Assembly (NCBI RefSeq): GCF_988242995.1
Contig: NZ_OZ547043.1
Direction: 5' to 3' (one strand)
Length of the DNA stretch: 64,000 nucleotides
Shown: one piece after another, positions 2,694 to 26,893 of the stretch
How positions within the stretch are numbered: the stretch's first letter is position 1
Layout: each line of letters starts with the position of its first letter
Notes under the pieces: model-generated
What the model saw: only the letters and a program-made list of their open reading frames with translations
Databases searched by the model: none
Told to the model about the DNA's origin: nothing
Translations under genes and position numbers: made by a program

Positions 2694-2702
2694 GGACGTA
2701 AG

Positions 2703-4085
2703 ATGAAAAAAAACAATAGCCGCCGTGAGTTTCTGAGCCAGAGCTGTAAGATGGTCACCGCCGCCGCGCTGTTTGGTACCTCTGTGCCGCTCGCCCATGC
2801 GGCAGTCTCTGGCACCCTAAACTGCGACGCGAATAACACCATGAAAATCACTGACCCGCACTACTATCTCGACAACGTGCTGCTGGAAACCGGTTTTGAC
2901 TACGAAAACGGTGTGGCGGTACAGACCCGCACGGCGCACCAGACCGTAGAGATTCAGAACGGCAAAATTGTTGCCCTGCGCGAGAACAAGCAGCATCCGG
3001 ACGCCACGCTGCCGCACTATGACGCTGGCGGTAAGCTGATGCTGCCCACCACCCGCGACATGCATATTCATCTCGACAAAACCTTTTACGGCGGGCCGTG
3101 GCGCTCGCTCAATCGCCCGGCAGGCACCACCATCCAGGACATGATCAAACTCGAGCAGAAAATGCTGCCGGAGCTGCAACCGTACACTCAGGAACGAGCG
3201 GAAAAACTGATCGATTTATTGCAGTCGAAAGGCACTACCATTGCCCGCAGCCACTGCAATATCGAACCGGTTTCCGGCCTGAAAAATCTGCAAAATTTGC
3301 AGGCGGTGCTGGCGCGACGTCAGGCGGGCTTCGAGTGTGAAATTGTCGCCTTCCCGCAGCACGGTTTGCTGCTGTCGAAATCGGAACCCTTAATGCGTGA
3401 AGCGATGCAGGCGGGGGCGCATTACGTCGGCGGTCTGGATCCGACCAGTGTTGATGGCGCGATGGAAAAATCCCTCGATACCATGTTCCAGATTGCGCTG
3501 GACTACGACAAAGGCGTTGATATTCACCTGCACGAAACCACTCCGGCAGGCGTGGCAGCCATCAATTATATGGTTGAAACGGTGGAGAAAACGCCGCAAC
3601 TGAAGGGCAAGCTGACCATCAGCCACGCCTTTGCGCTGGCAACGCTCAATGAGCAACAGGTAGATGAACTGGCGCACCGGATGGCGGCGCAGCAAATTTC
3701 TATCGCCTCGACGGTGCCGATTGGCACGCTGCATATGCCGCTCAAACAGTTGCACGACAAAGGCGTAAAAGTGATGACCGGCACCGACAGCGTTATCGAC
3801 CACTGGTCGCCTTACGGCCTGGGCGACATGCTGGAAAAAGCCAATCTGTACGCGCAGCTCTATATTCGTCCTAACGAACAGAACCTCTCCCGCTCGCTGT
3901 TTTTAGCCACTGGCGATGTATTGCCGCTCAACGAAAAAGGCGAGCGCGTGTGGCCCAAAGCGCAGGATGATGCCAGCTTTGTGCTGGTGGACGCCTCCTG
4001 TTCCGCCGAGGCGGTGGCGCGTATCTCGCCGAGAACGGCGACGTTCCATAAAGGGCAACTGGTGTGGGGGAGTGTGGCAGGTTGA
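2703..4085 (+). CDS. yahJ: amidohydrolase-family deaminase with Tat signal peptide
   Basis: 460 aa; N-terminal SRREFLSQ twin-arginine motif; metal-dependent hydrolase His motifs (HIHLD). Confidence 0.85.
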   Translation: MKKNNSRREFLSQSCKMVTAAALFGTSVPLAHAAVSGTLNCDANNTMKITDPHYYLDNVLLETGFDYENGVAVQTRTAHQTVEIQNGKIVALRENKQHPDATLPHYDAGGKLMLPTTRDMHIHLDKTFYGGPWRSLNRPAGTTIQDMIKLEQKMLPELQPYTQERAEKLIDLLQSKGTTIARSHCNIEPVSGLKNLQNLQAVLARRQAGFECEIVAFPQHGLLLSKSEPLMREAMQAGAHYVGGLDPTSVDGAMEKSLDTMFQIALDYDKGVDIHLHETTPAGVAAINYMVETVEKTPQLKGKLTISHAFALATLNEQQVDELAHRMAAQQISIASTVPIGTLHMPLKQLHDKGVKVMTGTDSVIDHWSPYGLGDMLEKANLYAQLYIRPNEQNLSRSLFLATGDVLPLNEKGERVWPKAQDDASFVLVDASCSAEAVARISPRTATFHKGQLVWGSVAG

Positions 4086-4379
4086 TACGCATTTGAAACG
4101 CCTGCAATGGTGAATCGTAAGAGATTTAAAGCCCCAGGGAGTGGGGCGGGAATGGTTTGTTAATGAATGATCCTGAACTTTATAATCTCCCGGCATAATT
4201 TCCAGGGGATTATTTGAGAGAAATACACAAAAGTGAGTTTTAACAATATTTATCAAGCCATAAATGTGACCTGCTTCGGATAAAAAAGATTAAAAATAGA
4301 AAAACCAATGATACTCTTGCTGATGGTTATCAACAGTAATTAAGATGTGATTTTTTTCCGTAATCGCGAAAATATTCTC

Positions 4380-4790
4380 ATGACCATAAAAGAAAAAATC
4401 TCACAAAAATATCCCCATGCTTCCTTTTGTACTTTTGGCGATTCAGCAGCGTTGGCCGATCACCTCGCAACGTTGATTGCGACAGGTGTTAAAACAGCTT
4501 CCTGTGGTTCGCTGGCGGGATGTATTGAAGACAACGCATTTCCGATGATTGGTGAGTATAAGATTGTAGAAAATAGCCGTGGTGAGCCTGTCTGTGTTAT
4601 CAGAGTGATTGGCCTGCATTTACTGCGCTTTTCTGATGTCACCGCGGAGCTTGCCCGTAAGGAAGGTGAAGGTGACCTCAGTCTTGAATATTGGCGTAAT
4701 GAACACCGTCGTTTTTTCCAGGCAGAAGGATGCTATTCACCCGAAATGGACGTTATCTTTGAAGAATATGCCCTTATTGACGTTGTGTAG
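4380..4790 (+). CDS. ASCH-domain protein (YqfB-like fold); not present at this locus in K-12
   Basis: 136 aa from ATG 4380 (MTIKEK...); ASCH-like sequence; an alternative GTG start at 4347 is possible; flanked by AT-rich non-coding DNA. Confidence 0.55.
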   Translation: MTIKEKISQKYPHASFCTFGDSAALADHLATLIATGVKTASCGSLAGCIEDNAFPMIGEYKIVENSRGEPVCVIRVIGLHLLRFSDVTAELARKEGEGDLSLEYWRNEHRRFFQAEGCYSPEMDVIFEEYALIDVV

Positions 4791-5040
4791 ATAACTATTT
4801 TTCTACGCGAAATAAGCTCACAAACATAAAGTATCGCTAATTTTGTTTATTTTGCTGTTTTTTACGTGATGATTGTCACACTTATTGTTACTGCCCGTTT
4901 TGTCCATATTTATAACCAAATTTTTAATAGCTGCCTGAAATAGGGCTGTTTATTCTGCATAAAAATATTCGAAAATTCTTATTCTCTCCAGCGCGCTAAT
5001 TTGGGCGAACACTTCCTGACTACCCTGCAATGAGGCTGAA

Positions 5041-6027
5041 ATGATGAATAAACGTTTTGTTATCAATATGGTGTCTTCGCTGTTATTAGGCGCTGCGCTA
5101 ATTTCTGCGCCGCTCCAGGCAGCGGAAAAAGTCGTGGTGAATATCTCTAAAGTCGATGGTATGCCGTGGTTTAATCGCATGGGCGAAGGTGTGGTCGAGG
5201 CGGGTAAAGCCTTTGGTGTTAATGCGTCACAGGTGGGGCCTTCAAGTACTGATGCTCCGCAACAGGTTAAAATCATTGAGGATTTAATCGCCCGTAAGGT
5301 TAATGCAATTACAATTGTGCCAAACGATGCCAACGTGCTGGAACCGGTATTCAAAAAAGCGCGAGATGCCGGAATTGTGGTTCTGACCAACGAATCCCCC
5401 GGTCAGCCAAGTGCTAACTGGGATATCGAAATCATTGATAACGAAAAATTTGCCGCTGAATATGTTGAGCATATGGCGAAACGCATGGGTGGCAAGGGCG
5501 GCTATGTGATTTACGTGGGTAGTTTGACCGTGCCGCAGCATAACTTATGGGCTGACTTGCTGGTGAAATACCAGAAAGAGCATTACCCGGATATGCATGA
5601 AGTTACCCGCCGCATGCCGGTTGCCGAGAGTGTGGATGACTCACGTCGTACCACACTGGACCTCATGAAAACCTATCCTGACTTGAAAGCGGTTGTCTCC
5701 TTTGGTTCAAACGGTCCGATTGGCGCGGGACGTGCAGTGAAAGAGAAACGGGCGAAAAATAAAGTCGCAGTCTATGGCATGATGATCCCTTCACAGGCGG
5801 CATCACTGATTAAAAGTGGTGATATCACCGAAGGGATTACTTACGATCCGGCCTCTGCAGGTTACGCACTCGCGGCCGTCGCCAGCACGTTGCTGAAGGG
5901 TGAAGAGATCAAACCTGGATTAGAAATGGAGAATCTCGGTAAGGCCGACGTAGATATGGATAAGCGAATTATCCGTTTCCATAAGGTATTACTGGTCAAC
6001 AAAGACAATATCGACTCACTTTATTAA
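5041..6027 (+). CDS. periplasmic monosaccharide-binding protein of a CUT2 ABC transporter (LsrB/YtfQ-like)
   Basis: 328 aa; signal peptide (LLGAALISAPLQAAEK); C-terminal ...VNKDNIDSLY resembles the LsrB family; first gene of a PBP-ATPase-permease-permease block. Confidence 0.8.
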   Translation: MMNKRFVINMVSSLLLGAALISAPLQAAEKVVVNISKVDGMPWFNRMGEGVVEAGKAFGVNASQVGPSSTDAPQQVKIIEDLIARKVNAITIVPNDANVLEPVFKKARDAGIVVLTNESPGQPSANWDIEIIDNEKFAAEYVEHMAKRMGGKGGYVIYVGSLTVPQHNLWADLLVKYQKEHYPDMHEVTRRMPVAESVDDSRRTTLDLMKTYPDLKAVVSFGSNGPIGAGRAVKEKRAKNKVAVYGMMIPSQAASLIKSGDITEGITYDPASAGYALAAVASTLLKGEEIKPGLEMENLGKADVDMDKRIIRFHKVLLVNKDNIDSLY

Positions 6028-6075
6028 TCCATTTCTTCGGGGCGAAAGCCCCGATTCTTATTGCCAGGGGATGCT

Positions 6076-7560
6076 ATGGAAACCTTCCTTTCCCTTCGTC
6101 ATATCAACAAAACGTTTCATGCCACGCGAGCGCTGCGCGATGTTTCTCTCGACTTTATGTCGGGTGAGGTGCACTGCCTTGCCGGGCAAAACGGCTGTGG
6201 TAAATCGACGTTGATTAAAATTATGTCCGGTGTTTATCGCCCGGATGAGGGGGCGGAAATTACGCTTGGTGGGAAAAACTGGTCAAAGCTGACACCCGCC
6301 GCTTCGGTGGCGCAGGGGATTCAGGTGATTTATCAGGACCTCTCTTTATTTCCTAACCTGAGTGTCTGGGAGAATATCGCCGTGAATCACTATCACCACG
6401 GTCTGTTTGTTAACCGCCGTCGTCTGCGTGAGGTGGCGCAGGCGGCAATGACCAGTATTAACGTCACATTGCCACTGGATACGCTCGTTTCTGAGCTTTC
6501 AATTGCCCGCTGTCAGCTGGTGGCAATTTGCCGTGCACTGGCGCAGGACGCACGGTTGATCGTGATGGATGAACCAACCGCTTCGCTGACCCATCAGGAA
6601 GTGCAAGGGTTATTACAGGTGGTGCATCAATTGCGGGAACGCGGGATCTGCGTGGTCTTCGTCAGTCATCGTCTGGAAGAAGTGATGGAAGTTTCCGACC
6701 GTATTTCAGTGCTGAAAGATGGTGAGCTGGTCGGGACCTTTCCGGCCGCAGAGATGACCACAAAACAACTCAGTTTTCTGATGACCGGCCAGGAGTTCGA
6801 ATATCAGGTACGAGAGTTGTGGCAGGGAAAATCCAGCACCCCGGTGCTGGAGGTGCGTAATTTAAGTCGTCATGGGGAATATCAAAATATTAACTTGCGG
6901 GTGGAAGCGGGCGAAGTGGTGTCGATTGTTGGCCTGCTTGGTGCGGGGCGCACGGAATTATGTCTGAGTCTGTTTGGTATGACCCGACCGGATGCTGGTG
7001 AGATCCTCATCAACGGTCAGCCGGTTACACTGCATAGTAACCAGGACGCCATCCGCCACGGTATTGGTTATGTTTCGGAAGATCGCATGTCGCGCGGTTT
7101 GGTGATGGCGCAATCTATTGAAGACAACATCATTAGCACTGTTTTTCACAAGGTAAAAGATCGCTTCGGCTTTCTGAGTGAAGCTAAAGTGCGTGACCTG
7201 GTGGACAGGCTAATCAAGGCATTGACCATCAAAGTCTCTGACCCACATCTCCCGGTGAATACGCTTTCCGGGGGTAACGCGCAGCGAGTATCGATCGCCA
7301 AATGGCTGGCGATTGGGCCACGACTGTTGATTCTCGATAGCCCGACAGTCGGTGTTGATATCGCCAACAAAGCAGGAATATACGGCATTATCAGCGATCT
7401 GGCGGCTCATGGCATTGCGGTATTGATGATCTGCGATGAAATTGAAGAAGCGTGGTATCAAAGCCACCGGATTTTGGTAATGCAGAAAGGTCAGATCACC
7501 CATAGCTTCCTGCCTGACAGCAGTTCTCAGGCCAGGATTGCGGAGGTGGTAAATGGCTGA
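6076..7560 (+). CDS. sugar ABC transporter ATP-binding protein with two nucleotide-binding domains
   Basis: Walker A GQNGCGKST and a second NBD (GLLGAGRTEL), LSGG signature motifs; ATG 6076 preceded by GGGGA Shine-Dalgarno; the track start at 6061 is TTG. Confidence 0.85.
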   Translation: METFLSLRHINKTFHATRALRDVSLDFMSGEVHCLAGQNGCGKSTLIKIMSGVYRPDEGAEITLGGKNWSKLTPAASVAQGIQVIYQDLSLFPNLSVWENIAVNHYHHGLFVNRRRLREVAQAAMTSINVTLPLDTLVSELSIARCQLVAICRALAQDARLIVMDEPTASLTHQEVQGLLQVVHQLRERGICVVFVSHRLEEVMEVSDRISVLKDGELVGTFPAAEMTTKQLSFLMTGQEFEYQVRELWQGKSSTPVLEVRNLSRHGEYQNINLRVEAGEVVSIVGLLGAGRTELCLSLFGMTRPDAGEILINGQPVTLHSNQDAIRHGIGYVSEDRMSRGLVMAQSIEDNIISTVFHKVKDRFGFLSEAKVRDLVDRLIKALTIKVSDPHLPVNTLSGGNAQRVSIAKWLAIGPRLLILDSPTVGVDIANKAGIYGIISDLAAHGIAVLMICDEIEEAWYQSHRILVMQKGQITHSFLPDSSSQARIAEVVNG

Positions 7561-8524
7561 ACTGAAAAAACGTCATGAATTCTGGCTGGCATTACTGATT
7601 GTGGGGCTGTTTGTTGGCCTTGCCTGGCGCAGCGACGAGTTTCTGACATTCGGTAATTTGTACGATCTCGCCAATAACTATGCCATGTTGACTATTCTCG
7701 CCTGTGGTTTGTTTGTGGTGTTAATTTCCGGTGGGATTGATATTTCGTTTCCGGCAATGACCATCATTGCGCAATACGGCATGGTGCTGTTGCTGCAAAA
7801 AATTGGTGGCAACTTTGCTGTCGCGTTTGCACTGGCGGGCGGCATCGGCATTTTACTTGGCTTAATAAACGCCTTACTGGTTAATCGCCTACGGGTGCCG
7901 TCTATCATCATCACCATTTCGACGCTGAATATTTTCTATGGCCTGCTGTTATGGTTGAGTAAAGGTGTGTGGCTGTACGACTTTCCGCCGTGGTTTGAGC
8001 AGGGGGTAATGTTGTTCAAGTACACCGATGCTGACGGCTATGACTATGGCCTTGGTCTGCCGCTGATCGCCATGATTACGGTGGTGCTGCTAACAGCGTT
8101 TATCATGAATTTCACCAGTGTAGGGCGCAAAATTTATGCCCTTGGCGGGAACCGTGAATCAGCCAGTCGCATCGGCTTTAGCGTGCTGAAACTGCAACTT
8201 TTCGTTTACGGCTATATGGGATTGATGTCTGGTGCTGCGGGTGTAGTGCAGTCGTGGACGGTGATGACTGTCGCCCCCGATTCTCTTCTGGGTTATGAGC
8301 TGACAGTACTGGCTGCGGTGGTGCTTGGCGGCACTAGTTTGCTCGGCGGGCGCGGCACGTTAACCGGTACTTTGCTCGGCGTGGTGTTGTTGGCAGTGAT
8401 GCAAAACGGGCTAAATTTATTGGGAGTCTCGTCTTACTGGCAAACATTGATCACCGGCATCATCATCGTTGCCAGCATTAGTGCCACGGCGTGGAGTCAG
8501 CATCAGAACCGGAGTCTGCTATGA
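7553..8524 (+). CDS. sugar ABC transporter permease
   Basis: 323 aa, multi-pass hydrophobic; start overlaps the ATPase stop. Confidence 0.8.
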   Translation: MAELKKRHEFWLALLIVGLFVGLAWRSDEFLTFGNLYDLANNYAMLTILACGLFVVLISGGIDISFPAMTIIAQYGMVLLLQKIGGNFAVAFALAGGIGILLGLINALLVNRLRVPSIIITISTLNIFYGLLLWLSKGVWLYDFPPWFEQGVMLFKYTDADGYDYGLGLPLIAMITVVLLTAFIMNFTSVGRKIYALGGNRESASRIGFSVLKLQLFVYGYMGLMSGAAGVVQSWTVMTVAPDSLLGYELTVLAAVVLGGTSLLGGRGTLTGTLLGVVLLAVMQNGLNLLGVSSYWQTLITGIIIVASISATAWSQHQNRSLL

Positions 8525-9477
8525 AAAAATCGTGGCGTAACAACGTTGAGTTTTACTTGATCGGCCTGCTGGTGCTAACTGTTGCAGCCTTCAGCATTAC
8601 TATGCCGGAGATTTTCTGGTCGATAAGTAATTTCCAGTCCGTCGCTTCGCAAATGCCCGTGCTGGGCATTCTGGCGTTGGCTATGGCGGTGACCATGCTT
8701 TGCGGTGGCATTAACTTGTCAATTATTGCCACTGCTAACGCCTGTTCACTGGTAATGGCGTGGGTGGCGACTCAGTATCCACCGGGTATTGCTACGGTTG
8801 TCGCTACGCTGCTGGCGGGCGCTGGCGCGGCGGTGATAATCGGTTTATGTAACGGCGTATTGATTGCTGGTATTCGAGTGTCGCCAATTCTTGCAACGCT
8901 TGGGATGATGACGTTGCTCAAAGGGGTAAATATTCTGGTGACAGGCGGTAGCGCCATTGCCAATTATCCCTCATGGGTGCTGTGGTTGAATCATGCGCAA
9001 TGGTTCGGTATTCCGCTACCGATGTGGTTGTTTGCCGCAGTGGCACTGGGGCTGTGGATATTGCTGGAGAAAACGCCGCTCGGTAAAGCCATTTATCTGA
9101 TTGGTTCTAACGAACGAGCAACACTTTACTCCGGTATTAACACTCGTCGGGTGCTGATATGGGTGTATGTCATTTCCGCCTTACTTTGTGCGGTAGCGGC
9201 ATTTTTGATGATGTCGAAACTCAACTCGGCTAAGGCCTCTTATGGCGAATCGTACTTGCTGGTGTCAATCCTCGCGGCAGTACTCGGCGGGGTTAATCCG
9301 GACGGCGGCAGCGGGCGGATAATTGGTATGGTGCTGGCGCTGTTTCTTCTGCAAATTATTGAAAGCGGCTTCAATATTCTCGGTATAAGCCCCTACCTGA
9401 CGATGGCCTTATGGGGAACGTTGCTGCTCTGTTTCATTCAGGCTCGCGGCATGTTGGGGCTGGATCGGGTGGTTTAA
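8521..9477 (+). CDS. sugar ABC transporter permease (second subunit)
   Basis: ATG 8521 overlaps the upstream stop (ATGA); hydrophobic 318-aa product. Confidence 0.8.
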   Translation: MKKSWRNNVEFYLIGLLVLTVAAFSITMPEIFWSISNFQSVASQMPVLGILALAMAVTMLCGGINLSIIATANACSLVMAWVATQYPPGIATVVATLLAGAGAAVIIGLCNGVLIAGIRVSPILATLGMMTLLKGVNILVTGGSAIANYPSWVLWLNHAQWFGIPLPMWLFAAVALGLWILLEKTPLGKAIYLIGSNERATLYSGINTRRVLIWVYVISALLCAVAAFLMMSKLNSAKASYGESYLLVSILAAVLGGVNPDGGSGRIIGMVLALFLLQIIESGFNILGISPYLTMALWGTLLLCFIQARGMLGLDRVV

Positions 9478-9563
9478 ATATTGGCTATATTCAATGGACG
9501 CGTTTTGCCGCGATGACATATCAGGCATCGCCAAATACACATAGCTAATCAGGAGTAAACACA

Positions 9564-10613
9564 ATGAAGATCAAAGCTGTTGGTGCATATTCCGCTAAAC
9601 AACCGCTGGAACCGATGGATATTACCAGGCGTGAACCGGGACCGCATGATGTCAAAATTGAAATCGCTTACTGTGGCGTCTGCCATTCCGATCTCCACCA
9701 GGTCCGTTCCGAGTGGGCGGGGACGGTTTACCCCTGCGTGCCGGGTCATGAAATTGTGGGGCGTGTGGTAGCCGTTGGTGATCAGGTAGAAAAACATGCG
9801 CCGGGCGATCTGGTTGGTGTCGGCTGTATTGTCGACAGTTGTAAACATTGCGAAGAGTGTGAAGACGGGCTGGAAAACTACTGTGATCACATGACCGGCA
9901 CCTATAACTCGCCGACGCCGGACGAACCGGGCCATACTCTGGGCGGCTACTCACAACAGATCGTCGTTCATGAGCGATATGTTCTGCGTATTCGTCACCC
10001 GCAAGAGCAGCTGGCGGCGGTGGCACCTTTGTTGTGTGCAGGGATCACCACGTATTCGCCGCTACGTCACTGGCAGGTCGGTCCGGGTAAAAAAGTGGGC
10101 GTGGTCGGCATCGGCGGTCTGGGACATATGGGGATTAAGCTGGCCCACGCGATGGGGGCGCATGTGGTGGCATTTACCACTTCTGAGTCAAAACGCGAAG
10201 CGGCAAAAGCCCTGGGGGCCGATGAAGTTGTTAACTCACGCAATGCCGATGAGATGGCGGCTCATGTGAAGAGTTTCGATTTCATTTTGAATACAGTAGC
10301 TGCGCCACATAATCTCGACGATTTTACCACCTTGCTGAAGCGTGATGGCACCATGACGCTGGTTGGTGCGCCTGCGACACCGCATAAATCACCGGAAGTT
10401 TTCAACCTGATCATGAAACGCCGTGCGATAGCCGGTTCTATGATTGGCGGCATTCCAGAAACACAGGAGATGCTCGATTTTTGCGCCGAACATGGCATCG
10501 TGGCTGATATAGAGATGATTCGGGCCGATCAAATTAATGAAGCCTATGAGCGAATGCTGCGTGGTGATGTGAAATATCGTTTTGTTATCGATAATCGCAC
10601 ACTAACAGACTGA
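9564..10613 (+). CDS. yahK: zinc-dependent NADPH aldehyde reductase
   Basis: 349 aa; GVCHSDLH zinc-ADH motif and GxGxxG fold; SD AGGAG upstream. Confidence 0.9.
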   Translation: MKIKAVGAYSAKQPLEPMDITRREPGPHDVKIEIAYCGVCHSDLHQVRSEWAGTVYPCVPGHEIVGRVVAVGDQVEKHAPGDLVGVGCIVDSCKHCEECEDGLENYCDHMTGTYNSPTPDEPGHTLGGYSQQIVVHERYVLRIRHPQEQLAAVAPLLCAGITTYSPLRHWQVGPGKKVGVVGIGGLGHMGIKLAHAMGAHVVAFTTSESKREAAKALGADEVVNSRNADEMAAHVKSFDFILNTVAAPHNLDDFTTLLKRDGTMTLVGAPATPHKSPEVFNLIMKRRAIAGSMIGGIPETQEMLDFCAEHGIVADIEMIRADQINEAYERMLRGDVKYRFVIDNRTLTD

Positions 10614-10650
10614 AAAAATTAATAAATATCCTGTGGTTTAACATATTAAT

Positions 10651-10688
10651 TTCGCTCTCCACTTAACTTTTTAGTTAAGGAGAGCGAA
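10651..10688. terminator. long hairpin downstream of yahK (putative terminator)
   Basis: 10-bp stem TTCGCTCTCC/GGAGAGCGAA enclosing a second 6-bp stem TTAACT/AGTTAA; weak U-tract. Confidence 0.4.
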
Positions 10689-10855
10689 ATAATATCAAAG
10701 TAGCAGTAAAACCTATAACGTAAATTCAAATTGTTAAATTAACTCCCTCCAGGACACAATACTTCACACGTTAGTTATGAGCGATTTCTGATAGTGCATG
10801 GTTTAATCAGGGCTTTATTATCTGCGACGTTTATTTTTATTTAAGAGAGATCGCG

Positions 10856-26181: not shown

Positions 26182-26893
26182 GTGCACAGAAAACCCCCAG
26201 CTAGGCTGGGGGTTCCGGAAAGCTTTCAGCTTTGAGCCAGTTATTAAAACCCCTTTTGATTTGTTAAAACACCTTGCGGTCTGGCAACTGCAAGTGTCAA
26301 ACAAGAAATCAAAAGGGGGTCCCAATGGGGAACGAAAAGAGCTTAGCGCACACCCGATGGAACTGTAAATATCACATAGTTTTTGCGCCAAAATACCGAA
26401 GACAGGTGTTCTACAGAGAGAAGCGTAGAGCAATAGGCAGTATTTTGAGAAAGCTGTGTGAGTGGAAAAGCGTACGGATTCTGGAAGCTGAATGCTGTGC
26501 AGATCATATCCATATGCTTGTGGAGATCCCGCCCAAAATGAGCGTATCCGGGTTTATGGGATATCTGAAAGGGAAAAGCAGTCTGATGCTTTACGAGCAG
26601 TTTGGTGATTTGAAATTCAAATACAGGAACAGGGAGTTCTGGTGCAGAGGGTACTACGTCGATACAGTGGGTAAGAACACGGCGAAGATACAGGATTACA
26701 TAAAGCACCAGCTTGAAGAGGATAAAATGGGAGAGCAGTTATCGATTCCCTATCCGGGCAGCCCGTTTACGGGCCGTAAGTAACGAAGTTGGATGCAAAT
26801 GTCAGATCGTGTGCGCCTGTTAGGGCGCGGCTGGTAAGAGAGCCTTATAGGCGCATTTGAAAAACCTCCGGCTATGCCGGAGGATATTTATTT
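26182..26893 (+). mobile_element. IS200 (IS200/IS605 family) insertion, about 712 bp
   Basis: Interrupts the cynX reading frame; 5' terminal hairpin CCCCCAGC-TAG-GCTGGGGG (26194..26212); Y1 transposase gene; 3' hairpin CCTCCGGC-TAT-GCCGGAGG (26865..26883) followed by a T-rich tract; boundaries accurate to a few bp. Confidence 0.85.
26325..26783 (+). CDS. tnpA: IS200 TnpA (HUH / Y1 transposase)
   Basis: 152 aa from MGNEKSLAHTRWNCKYHIVFAPKYRR...; HUH motif (DHIHMLVEI) and catalytic Tyr region (RGYYVDTVG). Confidence 0.9.
   Translation: MGNEKSLAHTRWNCKYHIVFAPKYRRQVFYREKRRAIGSILRKLCEWKSVRILEAECCADHIHMLVEIPPKMSVSGFMGYLKGKSSLMLYEQFGDLKFKYRNREFWCRGYYVDTVGKNTAKIQDYIKHQLEEDKMGEQLSIPYPGSPFTGRK

Follow-up and report, generated by a model that had tools for sequence, protein, structure and literature searches.

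The aauABCD transporter locus and its neighbouring ASCH gene between yahJ and yahK: a putative AraC/CRP operator, and probable ancestral presence followed by deletion in K-12-type Escherichia coli

Aau (accessory L-arabinose uptake), an ABC transporter found in EHEC, was described by Cottam et al. in Nature Communications in 2024 and 2025 (PMC11127945, PMC12307932). Its operon has neither a regulator nor a kinase of its own, and its induction in EHEC strictly requires AraC and L-arabinose (PMC11127945, PMC12307932). The binding protein AauA has a Kd of 1.98 µM for D-ribulose against 598 µM for L-arabinose (PMC11127945, PMC12307932), and its crystal structure contains bound D-ribulose, in the alpha-D-ribulofuranose form (PDB 9I1M). 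Imported D-ribulose is a substrate of the L-ribulokinase AraB, which phosphorylates it in trans, the product, D-ribulose-5-phosphate, feeds the pentose phosphate pathway, and in the mouse gut the locus confers a competitive advantage (PMC11127945, PMC12307932). The Rbl system of Citrobacter rodentium (rblABCD-rblK-rblI) shares CUT2 architecture, gene order and the D-ribulose substrate with Aau, and Rbl-clade binding proteins are 58–64% identical to AauA; however, Rbl has its own FGGY pentulose kinase (rblK) and KpsF-like isomerase (rblI) directly downstream, which Aau lacks, and is induced by D-ribulose, not arabinose. LsrACDB (AI-2), RhaSTPQ (rhamnose) and YtfQRT-YjfF (galactofuranose) belong to the same ABC subfamily, the second of these also sharing the Aau gene order (binding protein, fused ATPase, two permeases), but they take other ligands. 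Dependence of induction on AraC and L-arabinose is common to aau, as published, and to araBAD and araFGH, whose promoters combine an AraC I1-I2 direct repeat with a CRP site; the aau promoter likewise has two predicted 17-bp half-sites, 21 bp apart and ending next to the promoter, with a CRP-like site just upstream.

In the window (the whole 64-kb stretch of DNA analysed), the list of open reading frames placed five genes, all on the + strand, between yahJ and yahK (4086–9563; Table 1). This agrees with the original prediction, which had also put the AT-rich flanks of the ASCH gene at ~290 and ~250 bp, close to the measured lengths, and had reported no kinase, regulator or catabolic gene alongside, none of which was found inside the block. 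GC content is 38–41% over 4001–5200, against 54–58% in yahJ and 48–54% in the transporter genes. O157:H7 strain 9234 has identical gene order and names in RefSeq, DNA identity to O157:H7 is ~97.6% over 2700–10700, and the block matches EHEC Aau in its flanks, gene order and operon structure, although EHEC EDL933/TUV93-0 carries a premature stop in the ATPase gene whereas aauB is intact here. A scan of the 86-bp spacer downstream of aauD gave no terminator-like or promoter-like match. The spacer 5′ of the ASCH gene contains a single sigma-70-like match (TTGTTA-18-TATAAT, 4157–4186), which is not significant, since one site was seen against 2.4 expected.

Table 1. Positions of genes, spacers, predicted regulatory sites and deleted segments in the window
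Feature	Position	Strand	Basis or remark
yahJ (amidohydrolase), left flank	2703–4085	+	ORF; tblastn, 98% identity to K-12 and O157:H7 yahJ; RefSeq names
AT-rich spacer 5′ of ASCH gene, 294 bp	4086–4379		GC 38–41%
Deletion 1 (K-12-type allele): 5′ part of ASCH gene and upstream spacer	4148–4742		K-12 alignment breakpoints
ASCH-domain protein, 136 aa, YhfF/COG4405	4380–4790	+	Pfam PF04266
AT-rich spacer between ASCH gene and aauA, 250 bp	4791–5040		GC 38–41% across 4001–5200
CRP-like site CGTGATGATTGTCACA	4865–4880	+	form NRTGA-N6-TCNCR; function inferred
Deletion 2 (K-12-type, Escherichia sp. E2593): AraC operator, promoter, aauABC, most of aauD	4886–9403		endpoints approximate, to ~15 nt
araI1-like AraC half-site TGCCCGTTTTGTCCATA	4892–4908	+	position and orientation conserved 5′ of aauA orthologues
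araI2-like AraC half-site TAACCAAATTTTTAATA	4913–4929	+	21 bp downstream of I1
Candidate –10 hexamer TATTCT	4951–4956		inferred from TGTTTAYTCT conservation in E. coli, Klebsiella, Franconibacter
aauA, periplasmic D-ribulose-binding protein, Z0415 orthologue	5041–6027	+	match to PDB 9I1M
aauB, fused double-NBD ATPase, Z0416-7 orthologue, 494 aa, intact	6076–7560	+	CUT2 ATPase matches
aauC, permease	7553–8524	+	start overlaps aauB stop by 8 nt
aauD, permease	8521–9477	+	start overlaps aauC stop by 4 nt
Spacer between aauD and yahK, 86 bp	9478–9563		
yahK (NADPH-dependent aldehyde reductase), right flank	9564–10613	+	ORF, RefSeq names, tblastn

Judged by sequence, the block is the already published Aau transporter locus, aauABCD (Z0415–Z0419, EHEC O-island 17). 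Its binding protein is identical to that of the crystal structure PDB 9I1M at 326/328 residues (99.4%, E 1e-213) and keeps 6/6 of the residues that contact D-ribulose (K37, W43, E118, H167, E196, S223), while AauB, AauC and AauD are 99% identical to their O157:H7 counterparts; as in Aau, the genes for a binding protein, a fused ATPase and two permeases lie between yahJ/ASCH and yahK. PGAP places the start of aauA at 5044. The original label of CUT2 sugar ABC transporter was correct by architecture (TC 3.A.1.2: a two-NBD polypeptide of ~500 aa, two BPD_transp_2-type permeases of ~320 aa, a Peripla_BP_4 binding protein) and by full-length NCBIfam matches, of aauB to the CUT2 ATPases AraG, YtfR, XylG, RbsA and LsrA, each below the equivalog cutoff, and of the permeases to AraH, RbsC and LsrC/D. 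Pfam PF13407, PF00005 and PF02653 were recorded for the orthologous genes of one frameshift-rich assembly (L089), which contributed nothing further. The view that substrate and control are unknown, by contrast, has been outdated since 2024–2025, D-ribulose, L-arabinose/AraC and AraB all having been published (PMC11127945, PMC12307932); since two papers show the role of the transporter in EHEC pentose competition, no new system is added here. A literature search on a yahJ-yahK ABC transporter, 3D02, Z0413, Z0414, ECs0372 and ECs0373 found nothing relevant. Assignment to an Rbl locus was rejected, yahK rather than rblK/rblI lying 3′ of aauD and RblK/RblI being confined to the clade with 58–64% identity. 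Taken as a whole, an explanation that combines the Aau locus, an independent ASCH gene, direct AraC control, and ancestral presence followed by deletion is very likely to be right.

Under the product name that RefSeq/PGAP gives the binding protein in every annotated genome seen, ‘autoinducer 2 ABC transporter substrate-binding protein’, the block would instead be an Lsr-type uptake system. LsrB is indeed a detectable relative (80–88 bits for PDB LsrB chains), but the binding protein scored only 111 bits against the NF011937 cutoff of 384, and RhaS scored higher (TIGR02637, 137 bits, cutoff 342), itself well short of assignment; a YtfQRT-YjfF identity fared no better (YtfR 416 bits against 850, YtfT 64–97 against 535, the YtfQ model absent among the binding-protein matches). 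None of the five block proteins reached an equivalog cutoff in the NCBIfam scan, the transporter missing those of all three systems widely, so that ‘LsrB/YtfQ-like’, the label originally given, holds at superfamily level and no further. With lsrK, lsrR, lsrF and lsrG neither in the block nor adjoining it, and D-ribulose established as the ligand by crystal structure and ITC, autoinducer-2 uptake is almost certainly wrong, and the product name is misleading for thousands of genomes. Unlikely, though less so, is the 2024 proposal that the main physiological substrate is L-arabinose, or else a different ara-pathway sugar, with D-ribulose as a side activity. L-arabinose is the sole known inducer, D-ribulose being non-inducing, and aau orthologues adjoin araC, araB and araA in Providencia, Budviciaceae and Pasteurellaceae; by genus, they lie in or beside araC-araB-araA clusters in Providencia, Limnobaculum, Budvicia and Leminorella. 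The neighbour in Providencia and Actinobacillus is an AraC equivalog (372–419 bits, NCBIfam cutoff 208), followed in Providencia by genes for ribulokinase, at 801 bits, and for L-arabinose isomerase, at 797 bits. Since other genera have the orthologues beside araBA, the original substrate could have been L-arabinose, or a different ara-related sugar, rather than D-ribulose. Against it as the present one, the affinity of AauA is >200-fold higher for D-ribulose, a delta-aau strain grows without defect on L-arabinose, and the growth benefit is seen only with added D-ribulose.

Control of the operon may be read from the spacer upstream of aauA. A motif spanning the junction of the two AraC half-sites, TC[CT]AT[AG]N4[TAC]A[GA]C, was present on the + strand 5′ of aauA in 48/58 Aau-clade loci, compared with 0/21 Rbl-clade loci. 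Its density was 1.5 per kb upstream of aauA against 0.025 per kb elsewhere in those loci, an enrichment that is somewhat inflated because the motif was refined partly on sequences later counted. Singly, an AraC site is uninformative: the single-site consensus gave 38 matches in the window against 42 expected, and it becomes convincing only through cross-genus comparison. The CRP-like form NRTGA-N6-TCNCR occurred at a fixed offset of 38–39 nt from the AraC motif in 39/49 Aau-clade promoters, against a background rate of 0.058 per kb. In E. coli, I1 and I2 are each 2–3 positions off TAGC-N7-TCCATA, degenerate half-sites unlike those of araBAD, and both AraC and CRP sites are predictions. The Klebsiella version of the operator, TAGTATTATTATCCATA-TTTA-TAGCTGAATATTACCTG, is nearly the E. 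coli araI sequence. AraC would then act directly on aau through the araI1-I2-like direct repeat, with a putative CRP site 11 bp upstream of I1, much as in the araBAD promoter although the spacing differs (~13 nt in araBAD). This geometry is conserved across Enterobacterales and Pasteurellaceae, is absent from the Rbl clade, and was probably ancestral to the Aau clade.

The ASCH gene is independent of aau and is unlinked to it outside Escherichia. Among ASCH proteins, the YqfB type has acyl-cytidine amidohydrolase activity and differs from the protein encoded here. That protein matched Pfam PF04266 almost from end to end (78.3 bits, E 8e-22, model positions 5–102 of 103) and has PDB relatives in 1T62 (6e-19) and 3S9X (3e-16); like EF3133 (PDB 1T62), 3S9X and YhfF/COG4405, it consists of a single ASCH domain, of ~136–166 aa in this group, with an EGEGD...W motif region. 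It matched no family in either NCBIfam or PHROG, both of which were scanned, and in the libraries searched no function is assigned to the subfamily. Its annotation names include ‘uncharacterized protein YhfF’.

Could the ASCH protein nevertheless work together with the transporter, perhaps as its regulator or as an enzyme that acts on the substrate it imports? The two are neighbours that share a strand, and within E. coli they co-occur almost perfectly, but outside Escherichia no ASCH gene was found within 8 kb at any of 78 loci with aau or rbl orthologues, and homologues in Yersinia and Kosakonia stand in unrelated contexts with no conserved neighbour. Moreover, ASCH is intact but aau missing in Escherichia sp. 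E2593, at another locus (L031) aau is kept while ASCH is reduced to a fragment, and the 250 bp between the genes hold the putative aau promoter. Partnership is therefore highly improbable. Somewhat less remote, but still very unlikely, is that the whole block came in horizontally, as an island (OI-17) inserted in the EHEC, B1 and E lineages, K-12 representing the original empty site. Horizontal acquisition is the origin given in the papers, K-12 and about half of E. coli are without the block, the stretch around ASCH is AT-rich, megaplasmids of Klebsiella quasipneumoniae carry the aau operon at 82% nucleotide identity, and no aau orthologue was found in representative genomes of the other named Escherichia species. 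Yet the aau genes have a GC content typical of E. coli, and the usual marks of a genomic island did not appear: neither the open reading frames nor the RefSeq annotation gave an integrase or IS element in the block, Rfam at gathering thresholds detected no RNA gene inside it, tRNA included, and a repeat search recovered only short chance pairs, with no direct repeats at the borders.

In K-12 MG1655, yahJ and yahK are neighbours, 376 bp apart, and the five genes are absent from between them, in line with the original prediction, which their presence there would have refuted. An insertion, which that prediction implies, is not supported, because block-less genomes carry deletion scars, which argues that the block was lost. 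K-12 is no clean empty site: it retains 4086–4147, the only part of the spacer 5′ of the ASCH gene to survive, 70 bp from the 3′ end of ASCH (window 4743–4812), and the last ~75 bp of aauD (from ~9404), which RefSeq annotates as a partial pseudogene. In K-12-type genomes these remnants of ASCH and aauD are in the correct order and orientation. Among 5,426 complete genomes, 2,205–2,213 have the full block, the deletion-1 and deletion-2 segments each being present in 2,213, while the scar (ASCH 3′ end joined to aauD 3′ end) occurs as one piece in 2,803. An intermediate state is seen in Escherichia sp. E2593, where an intact ASCH gene is followed by the aauD remnant. The probable course of events is that the block stood at the yahJ-yahK site in ancestral Escherichia and that about half of E. 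coli, K-12 included, underwent a deletion of ~4.5 kb and then one of ~0.6 kb. The deletion endpoints in K-12 and E2593 lie a few bases apart, so that two independent deletions, or transfer of the allele by recombination, are possible. Likewise, since representatives of other named Escherichia species lack an orthologue, acquisition by an early Escherichia or by the E. coli ancestor is possible.

These observations make it reasonably probable that Aau has long belonged to the arabinose regulon, with its CRP and araI1-I2 promoter conserved from Pasteurellaceae to Enterobacteriaceae and with frequent linkage to araC-araBA, rather than being an acquired, EHEC-specific island that hijacked AraC, and that in ancestral Escherichia it lay between ASCH and yahK and has since been deleted in about half of E. 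coli. The importance of Aau for EHEC pentose competition in the gut is already published; what goes beyond the Aau papers is the ara-linked synteny of the orthologues, the evidence of deletion scars, and a candidate AraC/CRP operator, which is testable. ‘O-island 17’ would on this account reflect a loss by K-12 rather than a gain by EHEC, and this would alter how the association of the locus with LEE-positive lineages is read.

The five genes placed between yahJ and yahK by the original prediction, an ASCH-domain gene and four genes of a sugar ABC transporter, are correctly described: the order of open reading frames, a yahJ–yahK gap of only 376 bp in K-12 MG1655 (RefSeq annotation), where the five-gene block is missing, and AT-rich spacers of 294 bp and 250 bp on either side of the ASCH gene (GC 38–41%) all agree with it. 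RefSeq annotates the same arrangement (yahJ–ASCH–transporter–yahK) in O157:H7 strain 9234. Within the 86 bp from aauD to yahK (9478–9563) neither a terminator-like structure nor a promoter-like match was found, so arabinose-induced read-through from aauD into yahK is possible. The only Rfam match within the window was the Hfq-binding sRNA STnc490 at 26192–26315 (full length, 146 bits).

Features of the yahJ–yahK region and of the putative operator upstream of aauA (window positions)
Feature	Position	Strand	Remark
yahJ	2703–4085	+	
ASCH ORF	4380–4790	+	136 aa
CRP-like site	4865–4880		CGTGATGATTGTCACA
araI1-like half-site	4892–4908		TGCCCGTTTTGTCCATA
araI2-like half-site	4913–4929		TAACCAAATTTTTAATA
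Candidate -10	4951–4956		within conserved TGTTTATTCT downstream of the half-sites
aauA, periplasmic binding protein	5041–6027	+	
aauB, fused double-NBD ATPase	6076–7560	+	
aauC, permease	7553–8524	+	start overlaps aauB stop by 8 nt
aauD, permease	8521–9477	+	start overlaps aauC stop by 4 nt
yahK	9564–10613	+	

The transporter is the already known Aau system, and the core of the earlier interpretation is superseded by the literature. Its binding protein matched PDB 9I1M at 326/328 residues (E 1e-213), the structure of AauA, which serves the EHEC ‘accessory L-arabinose uptake’ transporter as its binding protein (PMC12307932), and kept 6/6 of the residues that reportedly contact D-ribulose (K37, W43, E118, H167, E196 and S223). 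The aau locus corresponds to Z0415–Z0419 in O-island 17. L-arabinose is the only inducer of the promoter Paau, which requires AraC, and D-ribulose is used only with L-arabinose present, AraB being the kinase that phosphorylates it (PMC11127945, PMC12307932). AauA binds D-ribulose with a Kd of 1.98 µM, against 598 µM for L-arabinose, and an aau mutant loses competition in the mouse gut. These published experiments therefore supply the substrate and control that had been called unknown (D-ribulose; L-arabinose/AraC); no kinase or regulator lies adjacent, as had been noted, but the ara regulon provides both in trans.

NCBIfam placed the transporter proteins in the CUT2 group, all below every equivalog cutoff (for the binding protein, 137 bits with RhaS, cutoff 342, and 111 bits with LsrB, cutoff 384). 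In thousands of genomes AauA bears the RefSeq/PGAP name ‘autoinducer 2 ABC transporter substrate-binding protein’; given these scores the name is misleading, and an autoinducer 2-binding role is very unlikely in view of the LsrB score and the published ligand.

The K-12 yahJ–yahK interval is not an empty site. This spacer, 2887–3262 of the extracted MG1655 locus (L001), contains remnants of the ASCH and aauD 3′ ends: the yahJ flank runs to the equivalent of window 4147, and then come 24 filler nucleotides, the terminal 70 bp of ASCH (4743–4812), approximately 60 nt of diverged ASCH–aauA spacer, and the aauD 3′ end from about 9404, annotated in RefSeq as a partial pseudogene. The deletion breakpoint falls between the CRP-like site, which is retained, and the AraC I1 site, which is lost. 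At least 80% of window 2700–10700 was found in 2,205 of the 5,426 complete E. coli genomes; 2,213 carried the 5′ segment of ASCH and 2,213 the aau segment, and the scar was recovered as one piece at 96–100% identity in 2,803.

The simplest history is an ancestral block followed by two deletions. From an order yahJ–ASCH–aauABCD–yahK, a deletion of ~4.5 kb (about 4886–9403) would have come first and one of ~0.6 kb (4148–4742) second. The aau deletion appears older than the ASCH truncation of K-12, because Escherichia sp. E2593 (L087, 8001–8660) has an intermediate allele: yahD–yahJ, intact ASCH (90% identical), 57 nt, the same aauD remnant as in K-12, and yahK. The repeat search found none bracketing the block, no mobility genes were seen among its ORFs or in the O157:H7 RefSeq annotation, and the GC of the aau genes is 48–54%. 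The Aau papers describe horizontal acquisition of the locus and say nothing of the scars. Earlier acquisition of the block by an Escherichia ancestor may have occurred, since the other named Escherichia species, each represented in the scan by a single genome, yielded no orthologue.

A third state was seen in E. coli SCPM-O-B-8794 (L031, 6468–8000), in which ~100 nt separate pdeL (yahA) from the 3′ fragment of an ASCH gene, and an intact aau promoter and operon follow; yahB–yahJ and most of ASCH are missing, and YahL is just 80% identical to that of the window. Co-occurrence of ASCH and aau is tight in E. coli because the locus has a two-haplotype structure, and is broken by E2593 and SCPM-O-B-8794. 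The ASCH protein (Pfam ASCH, 78 bits; named YhfF in some sources) matches the uncharacterised PDB proteins 1T62 and 3S9X, and Enterobacterales commonly carry homologues of 50–65% identity in unrelated settings. No ASCH gene lay near any aau or rbl locus examined outside Escherichia, and we treat the gene as independent of aau.

The window comes from an uncommon lineage or carries a divergent allele of the 2700–10700 region, since just 2/5,111 matching E. coli records reached at least 99% identity (closest strain MEI003, 99.2%; most 96–98%). The E. coli plasmid record NZ_AP023209.1 (68.5 kb) has an aau-like operon at 98.3%, and several aau-bearing ‘plasmid’ records of 1.2–4.9 Mb look like mislabelled chromosomes. 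A 4.7-kb contig labelled ‘MAG: Bacteroidales bacterium’ (SFEK01000152.1, L003; AauA 100%, AauB–D 99–100% identical to the window) is almost certainly a misbinned E. coli contig.

The sequence upstream of aauA appears to hold a putative CRP/AraC operator conserved across genera. Upstream of aauA orthologues in many genera, a CRP-like site is followed after 11–12 nt by two 17-bp half-sites 21 bp apart; the Klebsiella version of the pair, TAGTATTATTATCCATA-TTTA-TAGCTGAATATTACCTG, is close to the E. coli araI1–I2 sequence. The junction motif of the half-sites was tuned on part of the very data used for counting; upstream of aauA it stood on the + strand in 48/58 Aau-clade loci versus 0/21 loci of the Rbl clade (1.5 per kb upstream of aauA versus 0.025 per kb elsewhere), and the CRP-like site stood at a fixed offset in 39/49 promoters (background 0.058 per kb). 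Taken alone, the single-site AraC match in the window was not significant. Several Yersinia loci (L024, L026, L027, L029, L033, L035–L037) have two araI-like junction motifs ~113 bp apart ahead of their aauA orthologue.

The nearest orthologues outside E. coli (Klebsiella, Franconibacter and Mangrovibacter, 90–92% identical) are likewise ‘orphan’ operons, and megaplasmids of Klebsiella quasipneumoniae (412–447 kb) have an aau-like operon with 82% nucleotide identity. In Providencia, araC (419 bits, cutoff 208), araB (801 bits) and araA (797 bits) come after the operon. In Limnobaculum, Budvicia and Leminorella, araC stands immediately upstream of it, with araB no more than 8 kb away. The Pasteurellaceae operon has an araC equivalog (372 bits) as its immediate upstream neighbour and an FGGY kinase as its immediate downstream one, and in Actinobacillus seminis araA comes after the kinase. 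This kinase (~530 aa; L041 12346–13941, L046–L060, L079) shares about 22% identity with AraB and with RblK and matched none of the NCBIfam ribulokinase models, so that it may be a ribulokinase that is not orthologous to them. The Rbl clade, whose binding proteins are 58–64% identical to AauA, has RblK and RblI, as described for the D-ribulose locus of Citrobacter rodentium. Given these ara neighbours, AraC control looks like an ancestral trait of the Aau clade, not a recent co-option, and the original Aau substrate may be a member of the arabinose pathway. What this analysis adds to a known system is modest: the deletion scars, the conserved putative CRP/AraC operator and the synteny with ara loci.
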